NCBI GenBank assembly: GCA_038210495.1
Contig: JBBQWR010000013.1
Coordinates: 15,310 to 79,309 of the forward strand
Direction of reading: 5' to 3'
Length of the DNA: 64,000 nt
Source of the DNA: Pirellulales bacterium
Lineage (GTDB): Bacteria; Planctomycetota; Planctomycetia; Pirellulales; DATAWG01
Below the pieces are notes generated by a model. It was given only the letters and a program-made list of their open reading frames with translations. It was not told where the DNA came from and did no database searches. The position numbers were made by a program, and so were the translations under genes. Shown here one piece after another: positions 31,779 to 43,780 of the stretch; position 1 is the first letter of the stretch; every line of letters starts with the position of its first letter.

Positions 31779-34505
31779 TCACTTCGGAGCCGCCTCTGCG
31801 TCGTCAACCTCCGTCGGAATCGCCGGCGGTGAGGCGAGAAATACGGGGCAATGGGCGTGCTCCAGCAGATAATCGAGCCAAGGCGCCGTCGGATTCCCCG
31901 TGTCGTCCGCCCATCGCGTGGGCATCGAGGCGATGATCAGATTGTACTGCCCCTCGCGGGCGCACCGAACGATCTCCGGCGCCGTGTCGCCGCCGATCGT
32001 GAGGACATTCATTTCGCGACCCAACTGCGAAGCCCGCTTTCGGTCGAAGCCGAGTGCTTGTTGAATTTCGTCGATAGACGCTTGCTTGTCGGGCGCGACA
32101 ATCAAATCCAGGTCGACTTTAGGATCGAGCATCGTCAGCACGGATTGAAACAGATCGTGGCTCGCCGCGCTGCCGTTGTAAACGAGCAGCACGCGACTGA
32201 CGCCGACGCCCGCGGCGCGGAGTTCCGCGACGTTCCGTGCCTGCCGCTCGCTGATCTTGGGAATTCGATTGCCTCCGGCCAAGTCGAGATGCACTTCGCG
32301 GTCGCGGCTCACGATCCGCACCGTGAGCGGTCGAGGCACGTCGGCGTTCACGTTGAACCAGTAGAGCGCCACCTGGTCGAGTTGTTCGTCGGCCGTGTTC
32401 TTGTTCGACACGCCGATCACCAGTTCTTGGGCGCCCAAAGCCTTGGCTGTGTTGATCACGGCGAACAACGGATTGTTCGTGGGCACAATGAGCGGGATGA
32501 CCTCCTTGCCGGATTTTTCCGCGCGATCGACGACGGCCGTCATCAGCTTGGTATCGTATTTGTCCAAATCTTGCGGAACGCGCTCGGTACCGACGCCCGG
32601 CTCGAACTTGGCGGTCATGACCACGACCGACGTGGTTTTGGGGTCGGATTCGAGGAGCGCCTTTTCGAGCATGAACAGGTTTTGCGGGGAGCGAATAGCG
32701 ACCAATTTGACAAAGGGCTTGTCGATGCGCAGTTTCTCGCGAGAGATTTCGTCGGCCGTCGCCTGGTTGAACTGCTCCTGATGATCGTGATGGGCTCCCT
32801 TGAGACGCCGTTCATGAGCCTTCTCGCTGACGACGAATATCATCAAAAACCCAGCGGTAAATCCAAGGCCCCAGGTCGTCGCCGTTTCCTTGGTGAGCAA
32901 ATTGGTGATCGCGGCCGCCGCCAGGACCAGGAAAATCAGAATCAGACCGACGGGAATTTCCAACTTGCCGATCCGAACATTGAGCGGCACCTTATAGTCT
33001 CGATGCGTGTGCTGCTTAAATCGCAGCACGACCATGGCCAGCGCTTTGAATACGAAGCTCCACACGACGCCGAAGGCATAGGCTTCGCCGAGCACGAGCG
33101 TGTCGCCCCGGCTGGCGACGATCGTGAAAAGTTGAAAGATGACAACCAGCGCGAGGATTCGGTAAGTCGTGCCGTATTTTCGATGCGGCTTGAGAAACCA
33201 ATCCGGCATGACGCCGTCCTCGGCGACGCGGTTCAAGACCCCGTTCGATCCGATGATCGCCGTATTGACGGCGCCCGATAGAATTAGAAATCCAATGAAC
33301 ACGACAAACGCCTGGAGCGCCAAGAGTGCCCAATTCGGACCAATCACGTTCATCGCCAAACCGCCGATGAGATTGTCGCGGTAGAGCGACATTCGCTGGT
33401 CGTCGGGAATCAGCAGCACCGCCAAAAAACTGATGCCGGCCGTCAACACCATGCTATAGACAAAGACCACGAAGGCGGCCTTCTTGAAATTCAACATCTT
33501 CGGCGCCTCGACTTCGCGATAAACCTGCGCGAGCGTCTCCTCGCCACTCATCGCCAGGATCGAGTGCCCAAACGCCACGGCGATCCCCAATAGCCCGACG
33601 AGACTCAGCCAATCTCGTTTCGGCGTCGAGGGGGCGGACAACTCGCGAAGTCGTTCGTCGACCCCCGTGTTCTCCAGATAACCGAGCGGACTTTCTTCCT
33701 TGGGCGGATCGGTCGAAAAATTCGGATGCGGTCGAAGGTCCGGCAGCATGGGCACGTGGTTGGTTTTGCCGTCTTTGCTCTTCGCGGCGACCAGGTCGGT
33801 GAACGTCGTGCCTGGCTGACCGATCAAATCGCGGCGCTCCCAGGCGTTGGACGCCAGCGTGGCCCCACACCACACGAGAATCACGACCGCCATGACGGTG
33901 GTGGCCTTCATGATCTTCACGGCCTTGTCGCTCGATTCGTGGATGCCTTTGATGTTCTCCCGAAAGAAATAAAGCGTGGCGCCACAGGCGATGACCACGG
34001 CGCCCCCGTTTGTGATACTGTCGCGCGCCTCCTTGGCGACCGCGAAACCGGAGTGGCCGAAAAGATAATGCTCGGCGTAAACGAACAGGTCGATTCCCAG
34101 GCCCATGATGTACTGGCCCGCCGAGACGCCGCTGATGGGGCCGGTGAGGATGTAGTCGAACATCAGGGCCGAGACGGAGAGTTTTGCCAGCCAGCCTCCC
34201 ATGGCTTCTTTTACCACGCGATACACGCCGCCGCGGACGAACAGTGAGCAGCTTTCGATGTACACGCTGCGCACAGCGTAGCTAAACATCATTACGGCCA
34301 AGATGAACCACGGCGCCGCGGCCCCGATCGATTGCTCGACGATCCCGCCGATGTAATAAGCCGTGCTGGCCAGATCGCACAGCACCACCGCGGCGGTCCG
34401 CCAGTAGGAGATGAACTTGAACATCACGCTGTTTACGACGATCACGTTCGCAGCGCGCGTGTTACCGCTAGAACTGGCCGGGCCAGCGCCCTCAGGAGAC
34501 GACAT
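31779..34505 (-). CDS. APC-superfamily permease fused to C-terminal tandem universal-stress-protein (USP) domains, KimA/YdaO-like; paralog 1
   Basis: Start set at MSSPEGAGP by homology with paralog 2; the track's GTG start 30 nt upstream lies in the conserved leader. About 12 TM segments. GGVYRVVKEAMGG…FDYILTGPISGVSAG resembles the KimA GGAYIVSKENLG…VDYILTVAVSISAG region (recalled from memory). Confidence 0.8.
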   Translation of the reverse strand: MSSPEGAGPASSSGNTRAANVIVVNSVMFKFISYWRTAAVVLCDLASTAYYIGGIVEQSIGAAAPWFILAVMMFSYAVRSVYIESCSLFVRGGVYRVVKEAMGGWLAKLSVSALMFDYILTGPISGVSAGQYIMGLGIDLFVYAEHYLFGHSGFAVAKEARDSITNGGAVVIACGATLYFFRENIKGIHESSDKAVKIMKATTVMAVVILVWCGATLASNAWERRDLIGQPGTTFTDLVAAKSKDGKTNHVPMLPDLRPHPNFSTDPPKEESPLGYLENTGVDERLRELSAPSTPKRDWLSLVGLLGIAVAFGHSILAMSGEETLAQVYREVEAPKMLNFKKAAFVVFVYSMVLTAGISFLAVLLIPDDQRMSLYRDNLIGGLAMNVIGPNWALLALQAFVVFIGFLILSGAVNTAIIGSNGVLNRVAEDGVMPDWFLKPHRKYGTTYRILALVVIFQLFTIVASRGDTLVLGEAYAFGVVWSFVFKALAMVVLRFKQHTHRDYKVPLNVRIGKLEIPVGLILIFLVLAAAAITNLLTKETATTWGLGFTAGFLMIFVVSEKAHERRLKGAHHDHQEQFNQATADEISREKLRIDKPFVKLVAIRSPQNLFMLEKALLESDPKTTSVVVMTAKFEPGVGTERVPQDLDKYDTKLMTAVVDRAEKSGKEVIPLIVPTNNPLFAVINTAKALGAQELVIGVSNKNTADEQLDQVALYWFNVNADVPRPLTVRIVSRDREVHLDLAGGNRIPKISERQARNVAELRAAGVGVSRVLLVYNGSAASHDLFQSVLTMLDPKVDLDLIVAPDKQASIDEIQQALGFDRKRASQLGREMNVLTIGGDTAPEIVRCAREGQYNLIIASMPTRWADDTGNPTAPWLDYLLEHAHCPVFLASPPAIPTEVDDAEAAPK

Positions 34506-34605
34506 GGGATTTCGATTCGGGACAGCAGGTCCCACTCGGATTCAGACACGACGCCCGTGCGACAGCAGTGCCCTTTTCAATTTCGGCGCCCAGACACTTG
34601 CTGGG

Positions 34606-34748
34606 GGCCTGCCGACGAGGTTAGCTGACGGGCTAGAGCTGGAAAGTACTCTGGTCCTACGATGGACCTTCGCCCCGGGGCCAAATACTCGCTCGAAAGC
34701 AAGCAATCAACCCGCTGGTTCCCCCGTTTCCCCGCCTCAGCGAGGAAT
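34606..34748 (-). promoter_or_regulatory. ydaO-yuaA (c-di-AMP) riboswitch-like aptamer, copy 1
   Basis: - strand RNA: CGCUGAGGCGGGGAAACGGGGGAACCAGCGGGUUGAUU … GGGGCGAAGGUCC … CUAGCCCGUCAGCUAACCUCGUCGGCAGG. The 3' block is nearly identical to the conserved ACCCGUCAGCUAACCUCGUAAGCG of the B. subtilis ydaO leader (recalled from memory). Confidence 0.7.
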
Positions 34749-35174
34749 TAGGCTGCACGAGAGGTTAATACTACCATCGGGAAAAAAGTTTGCAATCGGG
34801 GCGCCGCGCGCGGGCTATCTGAACTGGCGTCCAACTTCACGCAAGGGCCAGCCGACTGCGACCTAGGCCCTCCGCTCGTCGGCGGGCGGCGACCCGACCA
34901 CGACCCAACTGCCGAATGACAAGGACTGTGCGATCCACAAGAACACGTCAAGCACCAACGTCTTCCTGGCCTACAATGACGGCGGCACGATCAAGATGGT
35001 GCAATTGTCGTGACGACGCGGGACAATGGAATCCCTAACAACTCTGGCGAACCAGGGGGGCAGACCCATTTTGCTCGCGGCATCACAAAATTGGGTCAAA
35101 CCCCGGCCGGCTTGCGTTTTTGGACGAGGCGGCGTTGAACTTTGCTTCGTCATTCCGCTTCACGATTCACCCAC

Positions 35175-37898: not shown

Positions 37899-37999
37899 AG
37901 GATTTCGATTCGGGACAGCAGGTCCCCCTCGGATTCAGACACGACGCCCGTGCGACAGCAGTGCCCTTTTCAATTTCGGCGCCCAAACACCCTGCTGGG

Positions 38000-38140
38000 G
38001 CCTGCCGACGGGGTTATCTGACGGGCTGGAGTGGGAAAAGCACACTGGTCCCACGACGGACCTTCGCCCGCGTGGTCAAATGCCTTGCCAAGCAAGCGTT
38101 CGACCCGCAAGTTCCCTCGCTTCCTCGCCTCAGCGAAGAA
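38000..38140 (-). promoter_or_regulatory. ydaO-yuaA (c-di-AMP) riboswitch-like aptamer, copy 2
   Basis: - strand RNA: CGCUGAGGCGAGGAAGCGAGGGAACUUGCGGGUCGAAC … GCGGGCGAAGGUCC … CCAGCCCGUCAGAUAACCCCGUCGGCAGG. Same architecture as copy 1, with substitutions in the peripheral stems. Confidence 0.65.
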
Positions 38141-38418
38141 TTAGGCTGCACGAGTGGTTTATCGTAGCCACGGCCGCCCTGAATGCAAGTCGCGATGCGG
38201 CAGTACCTTGTCACTTGGCAGGACGACAGTCATAATAAATTGGGCAATTTGGGCAGTTGCTACCATGCCTCTTTCACCATCCGTTGGCGGAGCCGATTCC
38301 CAAACGCTGTTGTAGCCGCTGGCCCCATTTGGTAATCCAACGGACCCTTGTTGTTCACCCTGTTGCCAAAAACCTTTCAGCAGCCGGGGACGTTGAACCT
38401 CGTGAAAAAGCGGCGCGC

Positions 38419-39699
38419 ATGAGATCTCGCGTGGTTGTCACCGGCTTGGGATGCATTACGTCGCTCGGTTCGAGCTCTCAACAGCTTTGGAATCGACTGC
38501 TGCGGGGGGAGTCGGGCATTGGCCGGGCGACCCTGTTCGACACCACGAATTTCCCCACCCGCATCGCCGCTGAAGTCCGCGATTGGTCGATCGCCGACGC
38601 TGGTGAAGACCCCCGCCGCTGGAGCCATTCCCCGCGGCAGACGCTCTTTGCCGTCGCAGCGGCCAAACAGGCCTTCGCCGACGCGGGGCTCGGCGATGTC
38701 GCGCGCGACCCCAGTCGGCTCGGAGTCTATCTAGGCGCCGGCGACGTCTATCAGGATTTTGGGCAGTTCGTCAAAATTCTCGAGCGCTCGATGCGCCACG
38801 GCGAGATCGATTTGGGCGAGTATGCGAAGGCCGCATTTGAACTTCTCAACCCGGCCGACGAGTTGGAGCGGGAACCCCACATGGTCGCGAGCCATGTGGC
38901 GAGCCTGTTCGACGCACAAGGCCCCAACGTCAGCTCGTTCACGGCTTGCGCCGCCAGCAGCCAAGCGATCGGTGAATCGGCCGAGACGATTCGCCGGGGC
39001 GAGGCCGACATCATGATCGCCGGCGGCGCGCACAGCTTGATCCATACCTTCGGCGTCACGGGCCTAAGCCTGCTGACCGCGCTCAGCCGGCACAACGACG
39101 AGCCTTGTCGGGCGTCGCGCCCGTTCGATCGAGACCGCGATGGTTTTGTGCTGGGCGAAGGGGCCGGTATCTTGATTCTCGAAGGGCTCGAGCACGCTCG
39201 GGCCCGCGGGGCTCAGATTTACGGCGAGATCAACGGCTATGGCGCCAGCGCCGACGCCTACCGCGTGACCGATATTCATCCCGAGGGGCGCGGCGCGGTC
39301 GCTTGCATGCAGCGAGCCCTGGACGATGCCCGGCTCAACCCTGCGGACATCGACTATATCAACGCCCACGGCACGAGCACGCTGCTGAACGATAAAGTGG
39401 AAACGATCGCCGTCAAGCAAGTCTTTGGCAAGGCGGCTTATCGCACGCCGATTTCCAGCACCAAGAGCATGACGGGCCATTTGCTGGCCGCCGCCGGAGT
39501 GACCGAGTTGATCATCTGTCTGATGGCGCTGCGGGACGGAGCGCTTCCGCCGACGATCAACTACGAAACGCCCGACCACGAGTGCGATCTGGACTATGTG
39601 CCGAACGAGGCCCGCGATGCCCGCTGCCGGCACATTTTAAGCAACAGCTTCGGCTTCGGCGGCCAAAACGTGTCGCTCGTCGTCTCCCGGGCTGCGTAG
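38419..39699 (+). CDS. fabF: beta-ketoacyl-ACP synthase II family protein
   Basis: Internal ATG (MRSRVVVTGLGCITSLG). Active-site Cys region FTACAASSQAIG, YINAHGTST, KSMTGHLLAAAG and NSFGFGGQN. Confidence 0.8.
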   Translation: MRSRVVVTGLGCITSLGSSSQQLWNRLLRGESGIGRATLFDTTNFPTRIAAEVRDWSIADAGEDPRRWSHSPRQTLFAVAAAKQAFADAGLGDVARDPSRLGVYLGAGDVYQDFGQFVKILERSMRHGEIDLGEYAKAAFELLNPADELEREPHMVASHVASLFDAQGPNVSSFTACAASSQAIGESAETIRRGEADIMIAGGAHSLIHTFGVTGLSLLTALSRHNDEPCRASRPFDRDRDGFVLGEGAGILILEGLEHARARGAQIYGEINGYGASADAYRVTDIHPEGRGAVACMQRALDDARLNPADIDYINAHGTSTLLNDKVETIAVKQVFGKAAYRTPISSTKSMTGHLLAAAGVTELIICLMALRDGALPPTINYETPDHECDLDYVPNEARDARCRHILSNSFGFGGQNVSLVVSRAA

Positions 39700-41362: not shown

Positions 41363-43780
41363 ATGTTAAATGGCATCTTGCTTCTCGCGGCCCTGACCGC
41401 CGTATCGGCCGACCCGCAAACGACGACGATCACGGTCGACGCAGCCAAAGTCGTTAATCGCGTCTCGCCGCTGATGTACGGTTCGTGCATCGAAGACGTG
41501 AATCATGAGATCTACGGGGGTCTGTATGCACAGATGATCTTCGGCGAGAGTTTTGAGGAGCCGCCGCAACTGAAGTTGCCGGAGTGGAAGAATTTTGGCG
41601 GCGCGTGGTCCGTGCAGGATGGCGTCTGCTCCGTTAAATCGGACGCCGGCGCCAAGCTGCTTTGGACCGACGGTCCCACGCTTCTGGATGGGGTCGTTGA
41701 ATGCGACCTGAAATTCGACGACCATCCGGGCGATAGCGCCGGGCTCATCCTTCGCGTGCAGCAGCCGGGCGTGGGCGCCGATGCGTTTGTCGGTTACGAA
41801 ATCAGCATTGGTCCCTGGGGAAAATTTCTGCGACTGGGCCGTCATCGACACGACTGGAAATTATTGCAGCAGACGCCGATTGTGCTGGCGGACGGGCCCT
41901 GGCATCATCTTCGCGTCGAGATGACAGGTCCCAAATTGTCCGTCTACGTTGATGGCGCCGCCGCGCCGACGATCGTCTATACGGACAACGACGCTCCGCT
42001 CGCTGCCGGCAAGATTGGCCTCAGAACTTGGAACGCGGGGGTCCAGTTTCGCAATCTCGTGGTGGACGAGGGAACAAAGAAACGAGCGAAGCCCCAGTTC
42101 GTTATCGATCGCGGGGACGGCGTGAGCGGAATGTGGGACGCCGTCGCCGAGGGAGACGCACAAGCAAAATTTACTTGGGACGCGGATCGCCCTTTCAATT
42201 CGGCCCGATCGCAGAAGATTGAGCTCACCGGCGGTCGGGGCACGGCAGGCGTCGCCAACAGGGGGCTCAATCGCTGGGGGCTTGCCATTCGCGAGAACCA
42301 TGCTTACGCCGGACGAGTTTATCTACGCCAAGCCGGCTATTCCGGCAGCGTGACCGTCGCGCTTCAGAGCGCCGACGGCAAGAAAACATATGCCCACAAA
42401 AGCCTTGGTCCAATCGATAAGGATTGGCGGAAATTTGAATTCGTGATGCCTACGACGGAGACGGACACAACCGCCCGGCTGTCGGTGTCGATCGACAAGC
42501 CGGGCGCCGTTTGGATCGATCAGGTGTATCTGTGCGGGACGGGCGACGATCTGTTTCACGAACTGCCCATCCGAGGGGACATCGGCCGGGAACTGCAAGC
42601 TCAGGGGCTCACGGTGCTTCGCTACGGTGGATGCATGGTTAACGCCCCGGAGTACCGCTGGAAGAAAATGATCGGCGACCGCGACCGCCGGCCGGAGTAC
42701 CCAGGCTGGTGGTATCCCCATACAACCAACGGCTTCGGGATCGAGGAGTTCCTGCAATTCTGCGATGCGGCGAAGTTTGAGAAGGTGTTTGCCATCAACG
42801 TCGAAGAAACGCCGCAAGACGCCGCCGATCTGGTCGACTATTTCAATGGGCCGGTGTCGACGGAATGGGGCAAGCGCCGCGCGGACAACGGCCATCCCGA
42901 GCCGTATCGCGTCAACTACATCGAGATCGGCAACGAAGAAGCGACCGCGCCCCATTACATCGAGCGATTCAAACTGCTGCATGAGGCGATGCACGCCCGC
43001 GATCCGAAATTGCAATTCATCGTTGCCGCGTGGTGGGAGCCGGAGAATCCGGCGACTCGCCGGATCGTCGAGCAGTTGGACGGCAAGGCCGACCTGTGGG
43101 ACGTCCATGTCGGCGGAGACGATCTGCATGAGGGTCGTAGCGTCGACGCGCTGTTTACGCGAATGGAGAAACTGGTGCGCGATTGGGCGCCGGCGACGAA
43201 GCTGAAAGCGTGCGTGCTCGAAGAGAACGGCGGCCGGCATGACCTACAGCGGGCGCTCGGGCACGCGCGAGTGCTCAACGCGACCCAGCGGCACGGCGAT
43301 TTTGTGCTGATGGACTGCCCGGCCAATTGCCTTCAGGCGCTCGGACAGAACGACAACGACTGGAATCAGGGCCAAGTGTTTTACAACAGCGGCCAAGTTT
43401 GGGGCATGGCCCCGTTTTATGCCCAGCAGATGGCCGCGGGTGGCCATTTGCCTTGCCGCGTGGCCAGCGACGTGAGCGGCGACGACACGAACGTCGATGT
43501 AACTGCCACCCGCAGCGAGAATGGCGATACGCTGGTGCTCAAGCTGGTGAACGTGGCCGACAAGCCGCGCCGCTGCGACATTCGACTCGAGCATTTTGGG
43601 CCACTTGAGCCGACCGCAAAGGTGCAAACCCTGCGAGGCGCGCTAAGTGATGTGAACACGCCGGAGCAACCCGAGCGTATTCGTTCGGTGGAGAGCACGC
43701 TGGACCACGCGGCGGATCGCTTCGAATACGAGGCGCCGCCGTATTCGTATACCGTGCTGCGTATGAAGAAGCGATCGTGA
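41363..43780 (+). CDS. GH51-like alpha-L-arabinofuranosidase-family glycoside hydrolase with inserted DUF1080/LamG-like module
   Basis: Internal ATG with signal (MLNGILLLAALTAVSA). SPLMYGSCIEDVNHEIYGGLYAQMIFGESFE is a GH51 N-terminus. The insert is GGAWSVQDGV…GKIGLRTWNAGVQFRNLVV. The catalytic region includes LRYGGCMV and YIEIGNEE. Confidence 0.7.
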   Translation: MLNGILLLAALTAVSADPQTTTITVDAAKVVNRVSPLMYGSCIEDVNHEIYGGLYAQMIFGESFEEPPQLKLPEWKNFGGAWSVQDGVCSVKSDAGAKLLWTDGPTLLDGVVECDLKFDDHPGDSAGLILRVQQPGVGADAFVGYEISIGPWGKFLRLGRHRHDWKLLQQTPIVLADGPWHHLRVEMTGPKLSVYVDGAAAPTIVYTDNDAPLAAGKIGLRTWNAGVQFRNLVVDEGTKKRAKPQFVIDRGDGVSGMWDAVAEGDAQAKFTWDADRPFNSARSQKIELTGGRGTAGVANRGLNRWGLAIRENHAYAGRVYLRQAGYSGSVTVALQSADGKKTYAHKSLGPIDKDWRKFEFVMPTTETDTTARLSVSIDKPGAVWIDQVYLCGTGDDLFHELPIRGDIGRELQAQGLTVLRYGGCMVNAPEYRWKKMIGDRDRRPEYPGWWYPHTTNGFGIEEFLQFCDAAKFEKVFAINVEETPQDAADLVDYFNGPVSTEWGKRRADNGHPEPYRVNYIEIGNEEATAPHYIERFKLLHEAMHARDPKLQFIVAAWWEPENPATRRIVEQLDGKADLWDVHVGGDDLHEGRSVDALFTRMEKLVRDWAPATKLKACVLEENGGRHDLQRALGHARVLNATQRHGDFVLMDCPANCLQALGQNDNDWNQGQVFYNSGQVWGMAPFYAQQMAAGGHLPCRVASDVSGDDTNVDVTATRSENGDTLVLKLVNVADKPRRCDIRLEHFGPLEPTAKVQTLRGALSDVNTPEQPERIRSVESTLDHAADRFEYEAPPYSYTVLRMKKRS

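Follow-up and report, generated by a model that had tools for sequence, protein, structure and literature searches.

The locus and its c-di-AMP riboswitch

The DNA analysed here (the window, a stretch of 64,000 nucleotides from contig JBBQWR010000013.1 of a Pirellulales bacterium) carries two paralogous permease genes on its minus strand, each preceded by a leader RNA of its own. The leader treated in this work, copy 2, stands before the gene of a 907-aa permease of the APC superfamily with a C-terminal Usp-like region (P0001; 35175–37898, minus strand; Pfam AA_permease_2, 1.5e-49). Copy 1, which comprises a promoter, a riboswitch and a platform (34506–34795, minus strand), precedes an open reading frame encoding a 908-aa paralogue (31779–34505, minus strand). 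Both proteins match AA_permease_2 with E values of 1e-44 to 1e-49 and show a weak C-terminal match to Usp. On the evidence of its sequence, the segment 37966–38157 (minus strand) is a genuine but diverged riboswitch aptamer of the ydaO class, which responds to cyclic di-adenosine monophosphate (c-di-AMP), situated within the 907-aa permease gene's 5′ untranslated region (UTR). Copy 2 is a member of an already known riboswitch class, and an unusually diverged second copy.

An Rfam scan of the whole 64-kb window at the gathering threshold returned two matches, both to RF00379 (c-di-AMP/ydaO riboswitch) and both on the minus strand. Copy 1 obtained 58.5 bits (34594–34764) and copy 2 obtained 39.8 bits (37988–38157; E 9e-6, model positions 1–134), the gathering score of the family being 38 bits. 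An initial annotation, made from the sequence alone, had placed a c-di-AMP riboswitch upstream of the second paralogue and proposed cmscan as the check, the outcome of which is thus positive, if narrowly. The copy-2 match spans helices P1–P7 together with the conserved cores; in the Rfam alignment the nested helices are formed, with a few non-canonical pairs, one A·C among them.

The Rfam score is marginal, and class membership is firmer because of a lineage-specific covariance model (CM) and the relatives. This model represents the 3′ half of the element and was built from 30 related leaders, both window copies excluded; it gave 57.1 bits (E 7e-14) for copy 2 and 78.6 bits for copy 1, and over the 64 kb it recovered the same two sites and nothing else credible. 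A third match at 42186–42259 (minus strand; 10.2 bits, E 0.67) was taken as noise. Homologues of the permease are numerous and come from Planctomycetota, namely Pirellulales, Gemmataceae, Thermoguttaceae and Isosphaeraceae. RF00379 was found by Rfam scan immediately upstream of the permease gene in 19 of 33 homologous loci, and the lineage CM matches 45 of 90 loci.

All three sequence blocks by which the riboswitch had originally been recognised were found on the minus strand of 37899–38140, and they follow one another there as first described. The element does lie in this interval, but the interval misses the 5′ strand of P1 (GCC, 38144–38146, paired with GGC at 38004–38006 in the Rfam structure line) as well as the conserved 5′ end, which reaches to about 38155. 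The conserved 3′ core, AGCCCGUCAGAUAACCCCGUCGGC (38004–38027), carries a C-to-A change specific to copy 2 at 38017, a position at which C is invariant in a motif table of 26 relatives. The peripheral helices are indeed unlike those of copy 1 in sequence, with pairing retained.

An inserted hairpin and a displaced pseudoknot

The aptamer continues beyond the end of the Rfam match, to position 37966. About 35 leaders of relatives have a conserved CAGCUAACCNCGNNGGC, then a hairpin whose sequence varies, and then, at a fixed offset (+42 to +47), UUGAAAGGGCAC. The UUGAAAG tail of these relatives is complementary to ACUUUCAAG, which forms the loop of the aptamer's last hairpin, and compensatory changes between loop and tail are seen in leaders L001 (CUUUCAAG/UUUGAAAG) and L084 (CUUUUUAG/CUAAAAAG). 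In copy 2 this last hairpin is P7 (38030–38046), with a stem AGUG/CACU that differs from the GGGY/RCCC of the relatives by compensatory changes. Its loop CUUUUC (38035–38040) forms the 5′ strand of the pseudoknot and is complementary over 6 bp to GAAAAG (37966–37971), the 3′ strand and the true 3′ end of the aptamer. In an alignment of 33 leaders, standard pairs fill 95% of the cells of the 7-pair pseudoknot, with double changes at two pairs (CG to UA, and AU to CG or UA). None of 500 shuffles reached the observed values, and only 63–65% of cells were paired when the partner was slid by one column.

The crystallised ydaO RNA shows loop–tail complementarity of the same kind (CUCCUUCG/CGAAGGAG), with the tail directly after P1 (PMC5393176). 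The copy-2 pseudoknot can therefore be taken as the class's own, shifted in the 3′ direction by an inserted hairpin, PH1 (37978–38002). In the RF00379 consensus and in the crystallised RNA the pseudoknot strand follows P1 after 1–4 nt, whereas in the window the 25-nt PH1 intervenes after the P1 3′ strand. A hairpin of 7–11 bp folds at this position in 37 of 37 leaders (36 distinct sequences), and 8 of 8 modelled pairs show double changes, in a CM-fitted alignment that leans towards the structure fitted. Folded alone, PH1 of copy 2 has an energy of −10.4 kcal/mol, which is not unusual. The ordinary layout without the insert is present in the Isosphaeraceae loci L044 and L047. In planctomycete aptamers of the PH1 type the Rfam model stops short of the pseudoknot strand, and about 35 nt that had first been counted as platform (the 3′ strand of PH1 and the pseudoknot strand) are part of the aptamer.

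The platform upstream of the start codon

The platform that follows the pseudoknot measures 68 nt from GGGCAC to the AUG. A consensus fold of 11 close leaders (RNAalifold) contains two hairpins, PH2 and PH3, and then 13–16 unpaired nt before the AUG. PH2 (37937–37966; −10.5 kcal/mol) consists of an outer stem GGGCAC/GUGUCU, an inner stem that includes the first of two CUGCUG hexamers, and a loop GCACG. The outer stem (GGGCAC/GUGUCY) is kept among the leaders, with a G-C pair replaced by A-U in L083, and a pair of the inner stem changes from GU to UA in three leaders. PH3 (37912–37926; GGGAC-CUGCU-GUCCC, z = −2.3 against shuffles) has the second CUGCUG as its loop. Across the close leaders its stem is invariant and its loop variable (UCGCU, GAGCU, CCUCU); the stem also occurs with other loops in L001, L015, L039 and L061. 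The remaining 13 nt are an A-rich spacer, GAAUCGAAAUCCU (37899–37911), which is largely unpaired in the consensus fold and has no Shine–Dalgarno (SD) sequence. SD genes are few in planctomycetes, as in some other phyla (PMC5397173).

Folded in isolation, the copy-2 platform adopts the same hairpins at −22.3 kcal/mol, not unusual against shuffles. The distance between pseudoknot and AUG is 66–74 nt in 19 leaders from diverse Planctomycetota, and a sequence pattern for close platforms is AARRGCACNNNNGTCGCACG. No second RNA family of Rfam matched the platform at E ≤ 10. A 12-codon upstream frame, UUG AAA AGG ... UGA (37937–37974, minus strand), runs over the pseudoknot strand and PH2 and was rejected as a leader peptide; L085 has an AUG at the same place, and neither frame nor peptide is conserved in L210 or L001.

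CGUGCAG, the invariant 5′ end just upstream of P1 (38147–38154), has a complement in the loop of PH2 (37948–37952). The sequence of this loop is GCACG in the close clade, as against (C)UGCAC(A) in more distant leaders, and the contact is likewise available in L001, L009, L014, L043, L066 and L079. A complement of at least 5 nt exists in 18 of 35 leaders, with per-sequence p values of 0.02–0.2 for sequences that are non-independent. The pairing may represent a second long-range contact of the leader.

Near-identity of the two platforms

Counted from GGGCGCC up to the last base ahead of the AUG, the two window copies differ at 2 of 86 positions (37928, G/U; 37899, U/C), in agreement with the near-identity reported at the outset. 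Identity between the copies is 83% in the aptamer, 98% in the pseudoknot tail and platform, 92% in coding nucleotides 1–180 and 76% in coding nucleotides 181–840. Four-fold degenerate sites are identical at 27 of 31 positions in codons 1–60, as compared with 173 of 325 elsewhere (Fisher p = 1.4e-4). Platforms of different species at the same coding divergence are 70–83% identical (binomial p = 2e-5 against 83%). Because synonymous sites of codons 1–60 share the identity, and because this identity exceeds the interspecies level, the pattern indicates that gene conversion between copy 1 and copy 2 would be its main source, over a putative tract that would run from PH1's 3′ strand to near codon 60, some 270 nt in all, with purifying selection of the ordinary kind acting as well.

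The 98% identity could also stem from extreme purifying selection acting on each nucleotide of the platform, and some parts of the platform are conserved between species, namely GGGCAC, GUCGCACG and GGGAC..GUCCC. We nevertheless regard selection alone as quite improbable: it would not account for the lower identity of interspecies platforms at equal coding divergence or for the extension into synonymous sites, and even loops and linkers that are free to vary in relatives are identical between the two copies. A neighbour-joining (NJ) tree places both window proteins in the riboswitch-bearing clade. Within it, the copy-1 protein joins P0002 (80% identity) first and the copy-2 protein (77%) only afterwards, yet the platform before P0002 (L081) is very different from the platforms of the window.

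Mode of switching

Members of the class act as OFF switches, and the Bacillus subtilis founder terminates transcription (PMC9960051). The leader element of Corynebacterium glutamicum nlpC represses at the translational level by a mechanism still undefined (PMC9960051); this leader and that of Streptomyces coelicolor rpfA are of the same class and, likewise, have no canonical terminator (PMC9960051). A translational OFF switch is favoured for copy 2 because of this analogy with the class and with its terminator-less actinobacterial members. Binding of c-di-AMP would lock the pseudoknot and thereby lower expression of the transporter, most probably at the level of translation initiation and not through an intrinsic terminator. 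An OFF switch on translation initiation is the most likely mode of action, in which the link between binding of the ligand and access of the ribosome is our inference. As a candidate exchange, GCAC at 37961–37964 could pair either with the 5′-end GUGC (38148–38151) or within PH2.

No intrinsic terminator (a stem-loop with a U-run) was found in 37899–37988 (minus strand), and the platform hairpins have no following U-runs. By that test copy 2, in contrast to the B. subtilis founder, is not of the transcription-terminating type. Pairing that would sequester an SD sequence is absent too: there is no SD, and no ligand-dependent cover of the start is predicted.

Competition between CAGCAG and CUGCUG complements had been put forward in the initial annotation as an alternative-pairing switch at the ribosome-binding region. 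The three hexamers do exist in copy 2, with one CAGCAG (37992–37997) and two CUGCUG (37955–37960 and 37916–37921), but the switch built on them is not supported. CAGCAG is the end of the 5′ strand and the loop of PH1, a covarying hairpin; it reads CAGCAA in copy 1 and occurs in 0 of 35 related leaders examined. The first CUGCUG belongs to the inner stem of PH2 and the second to the variable loop of PH3, and the probability of pairing with CAGCAG was 0.00 for both combinations in both copies. A strong alternative pairing is indeed predicted for the first CUGCUG, though with CGGCAG and the aptamer core. Given, in addition, that the predicted accessibility of the start region is unchanged, we hold it very improbable that CAGCAG 3′ of the aptamer governs access to the ribosome-binding region by competing for the two CUGCUG copies.

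The alternative pairing in question appears in the unconstrained ensemble of copy 2, where 38002–38021 (UCAGAUAACCCCGUCGGCAG) pairs with 37935–37960 of PH2 (p 0.45–0.98). The partner of the first CUGCUG is here CGGCAG and not CAGCAG. The copy-2-specific A38017 completes a 7-bp helix UCAGAUA:UGUCUGA with the 3′ strand of PH2 (37935–37941), at a point where copy 1 has a C·U mismatch. Among 37 leaders, only copy 2 (z = −2.4) and L085 (z = −2.7) stand out for the stability of an aptamer–platform duplex. A competition between aptamer and PH2 thus exists in the predicted folds of copy 2, and it does not touch the start region.

The exchange that we consider a candidate is the one at the 5′ end. GUGC (38148–38151) lies just upstream of P1, and its helix with GCAC (37961–37964) overlaps the outer stem of PH2, so that the two are mutually exclusive. 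L037 and L074 show an A-U replacement; in L007, L014, L038 and L079 there is a fifth pair, which covaries.

Two further models were tried. In an anti-pseudoknot model, GAAAGG would pair with a CCUUUC linker that otherwise serves as anti-SD for an AGG near the AUG. The motifs are attractive in L028, L009 and L007, and this model was rejected, with a family mean z of 0.09 and with both linker and AGG absent from the window. The second concerns the 3′ strand of PH2, GUGUCCG(G), which in L084 and L207–L210 is complementary to CGGAC(GC/A) directly after PH3, about 20 nt upstream of the AUG; the match reaches 7 bp in L084, L208 and L210. In these relatives a sequestering helix close to the ribosome-binding site is plausible. 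For the window it was discarded, as the matching spacer is absent from both copies and from L085, L086 and L082, the test being confounded by PH3.

The serious rival to control of translation initiation is that the riboswitch acts on transcription, by Rho-dependent or other non-canonical termination, or on mRNA decay, and not on translation directly. Termination of transcription is what the B. subtilis founder uses, the predictions made here show no refolding around the start codon, and the mutually exclusive pairing of the copy-2 aptamer 3′ core with PH2 (p up to 0.98) could gate a step other than ribosome binding. On the other hand, no stem-loop with a U-run separates aptamer and AUG, PH3 has only 5 bp, no C-rich unstructured rut-like tract is evident to sequence reading in the 68-nt platform, and the terminator-less actinobacterial members behave as translational switches. 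We therefore judge this rival unlikely, though far from negligible.

Taken as a whole, the explanation we prefer is that of a diverged aptamer with the longer architecture of its lineage, acting as an OFF switch on translation, upstream of a converted platform, and we hold it with moderate confidence. Several points weigh against it. The Rfam score of copy 2 lies just above the gathering score (39.8 against 38 bits), and copy 2 has six changes at invariant or near-invariant positions of 26 relatives, as opposed to none in copy 1, so that its ligand binding could be weakened or lost. The energy required to open −18 to +12 around the start of copy 2 is 12.8 kcal/mol in the free state, 13.9 once the aptamer is locked and 14.0 once GGGCAC is locked as well, and across 11 close and 19 compact leaders the opening energy of the start region does not change consistently on locking. 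The predicted folds show no mutually exclusive structure that extends into the start region, which goes against the alternative structure first postulated there and concerns the mechanism only. Complementarity between aptamer 3′ strands and platform is not enriched relative to shuffles in 37 leaders (mean z = 0.17), that between pseudoknot strand and platform is null across the family (mean z = 0.09), and the folding energy of the whole leader is not unusual (z = −0.5). The GUGC:GCAC pairing is kept in 82 of 108 cases, as compared with 75.3 ± 2.3 in shuffles (p = 0.004), but this test ignores phylogeny and the helix has just 4 bp in the window. Finally, Rho-dependent or RNase-mediated control, though less likely, has to be reckoned with.

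Divergence of the copy-2 core

The six core changes of copy 2 are G to A at 38117, which creates an A·C mismatch in a conserved helix, CA to UU at 38109–38110, CG to GC at 38070–38071, and C to A at 38017 within CAGCUAACC, where C is otherwise invariant. Apart from these, most core positions are kept. Among PH1-type members copy 2 has the lowest lineage-CM score (57 bits, as compared with 77–96), and the longest branch of the NJ tree is that of its protein. Helices P2, P5, P7 and PH1 and the pseudoknot have all been retained through compensatory changes, and we read copy 2 as a probably functional but re-tuned member of the class.

A stronger version of the divergence would be an aptamer that is decaying or re-tuned so far that its response to c-di-AMP is gone or occurs at a very different concentration, which would leave the 907-aa permease effectively constitutive or differently regulated. 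The six substitutions with their A·C mismatch, the low CM score and the long protein branch all fit such a course, and L085 and L086 show that the riboswitch of a paralogue can be lost. Compensation in P2, P5, P7, PH1 and the 6-bp pseudoknot is, however, not expected of neutral decay, and copy 2 still scores above the Rfam gathering score. We consider this outcome rather improbable and retain the reading of a functional, re-tuned element.

Promoter, regulated gene and neighbourhood

Sequence reading suggests a putative sigma-70-like promoter at 38161–38188 (minus strand), with a −35 element TTGCAT (38183–38188), a 16-nt spacer and a −10 element TACGAT (38161–38166). The generic promoter scan did not call it; the same CTTGCA ... 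TAnnAT arrangement stands before the riboswitch in L085, L086 and L207–L210. The copy-2 unit thus appears to have its own promoter, with a transcription start near 38155.

Searches with the permease sequences against PDB and NCBIfam gave no matches. In a fold search, the AlphaFold2 model of the permease, of modest confidence (pLDDT 67), resembles the KCC/NKCC/NCC cotransporters (cation-chloride cotransporters) and KimA. KimA is a c-di-AMP-binding K+ importer encoded by ydaO, the gene after which the riboswitch class is named. Genes for transporters of amino acids and K+ are known to be associated with the RF00379 class (PMC7266159). The model hints that the permease may move a cation or osmolyte, probably as a K+ or osmolyte importer, and that c-di-AMP might exert double control through the riboswitch and a protein domain.

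The divergent neighbour at 38257–39699 (plus strand) encodes a beta-ketoacyl synthase, as it does in L084–L086 and L210. In the tandem-permease relatives L085 and L086 the first gene alone carries a riboswitch, and the second gene is of another clade. Ahead of this second (clade-B) gene stand a promoter-like element and a roughly 50-nt leader (8646–8829 in L085, 8646–8769 in L086), which keeps only the riboswitch 5′ end (GCUCGUGCAGC) and a GGGCGAA fragment and has no Rfam match. An internal deletion seems to have removed the c-di-AMP riboswitch here.

Relation to known members of the class

With RF00379, whose founder lies upstream of B. subtilis ydaO (kimA), copy 2 shares, at most of their positions, the cores GCCUAAU, CGNGGGAAC, GGGCGAAGG and AGCCCGUCAGNUAACCNCGNCGGC, and further the nested helices and the pseudoknot between the last loop and the 3′ tail. 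The founder, too, is located in the 5′ UTR of an APC-superfamily transporter gene, and the predicted fold of the copy-2 permease is KimA-like. Distinct from the class are the start without SD, the fixed distance of about 68 nt and the six unusual core substitutions. The actinobacterial leaders control genes of cell-wall hydrolases (PMC9960051), whereas the window copies precede permeases; a CUCC/GGAG anti-SD scheme has been proposed for the former, and the window has neither an SD nor a comparable anti-SD pairing.

Closer likeness is found in the planctomycete APC-Usp leaders (L001–L086 and L207–L210), which have the same order of aptamer, PH1, UUGAAAG strand, GGGCAC-initiated PH2, PH3 and AUG. 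Synteny with fab genes is common to the window and L084–L086 and L210. L085 and L086 have one riboswitch per tandem pair, whereas the window has two clade-A paralogues with one riboswitch each. A pyrimidine-rich linker and an AGG motif are present in many planctomycete relatives but not in the leaders of the window.

Implications for c-di-AMP control in Planctomycetota

In principle, copy 2 leaves the knowledge of the class unchanged. As a member with neither terminator nor SD, it bears on the mode of action of c-di-AMP riboswitches that have no terminator. Of relevance to annotation is that the Rfam model ends these aptamers before the pseudoknot strand. The canonical copy 1 and the six-substitution copy 2, which share a converted platform, constitute a natural pair for comparison of ligand responses.

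A bolder and tentative view, which we think unlikely as it stands, is that planctomycete APC-Usp riboswitches form a distinct subclass defined by the PH1 insert, the 5′ GUGC:GCAC helix, a two-hairpin platform without SD and an AUG at about 68 nt, and that this subclass controls translation without terminator or SD sequestration, the window units being partly homogenised by gene conversion. Control could then proceed by hiding the A-rich pseudoknot strand, which would otherwise offer a standby or S1 landing site, or by exchange between the 5′-end helix and PH2. If this were true, converted platforms combined with diverging aptamers could give paralogous transporters different c-di-AMP set-points.

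The riboswitch has been studied mostly in Firmicutes and Actinobacteria, and in the literature searched there was no paper linking it with Planctomycetota, to which it is extended here. The leaders described indicate c-di-AMP control of a large family of APC-Usp permeases in Planctomycetota.

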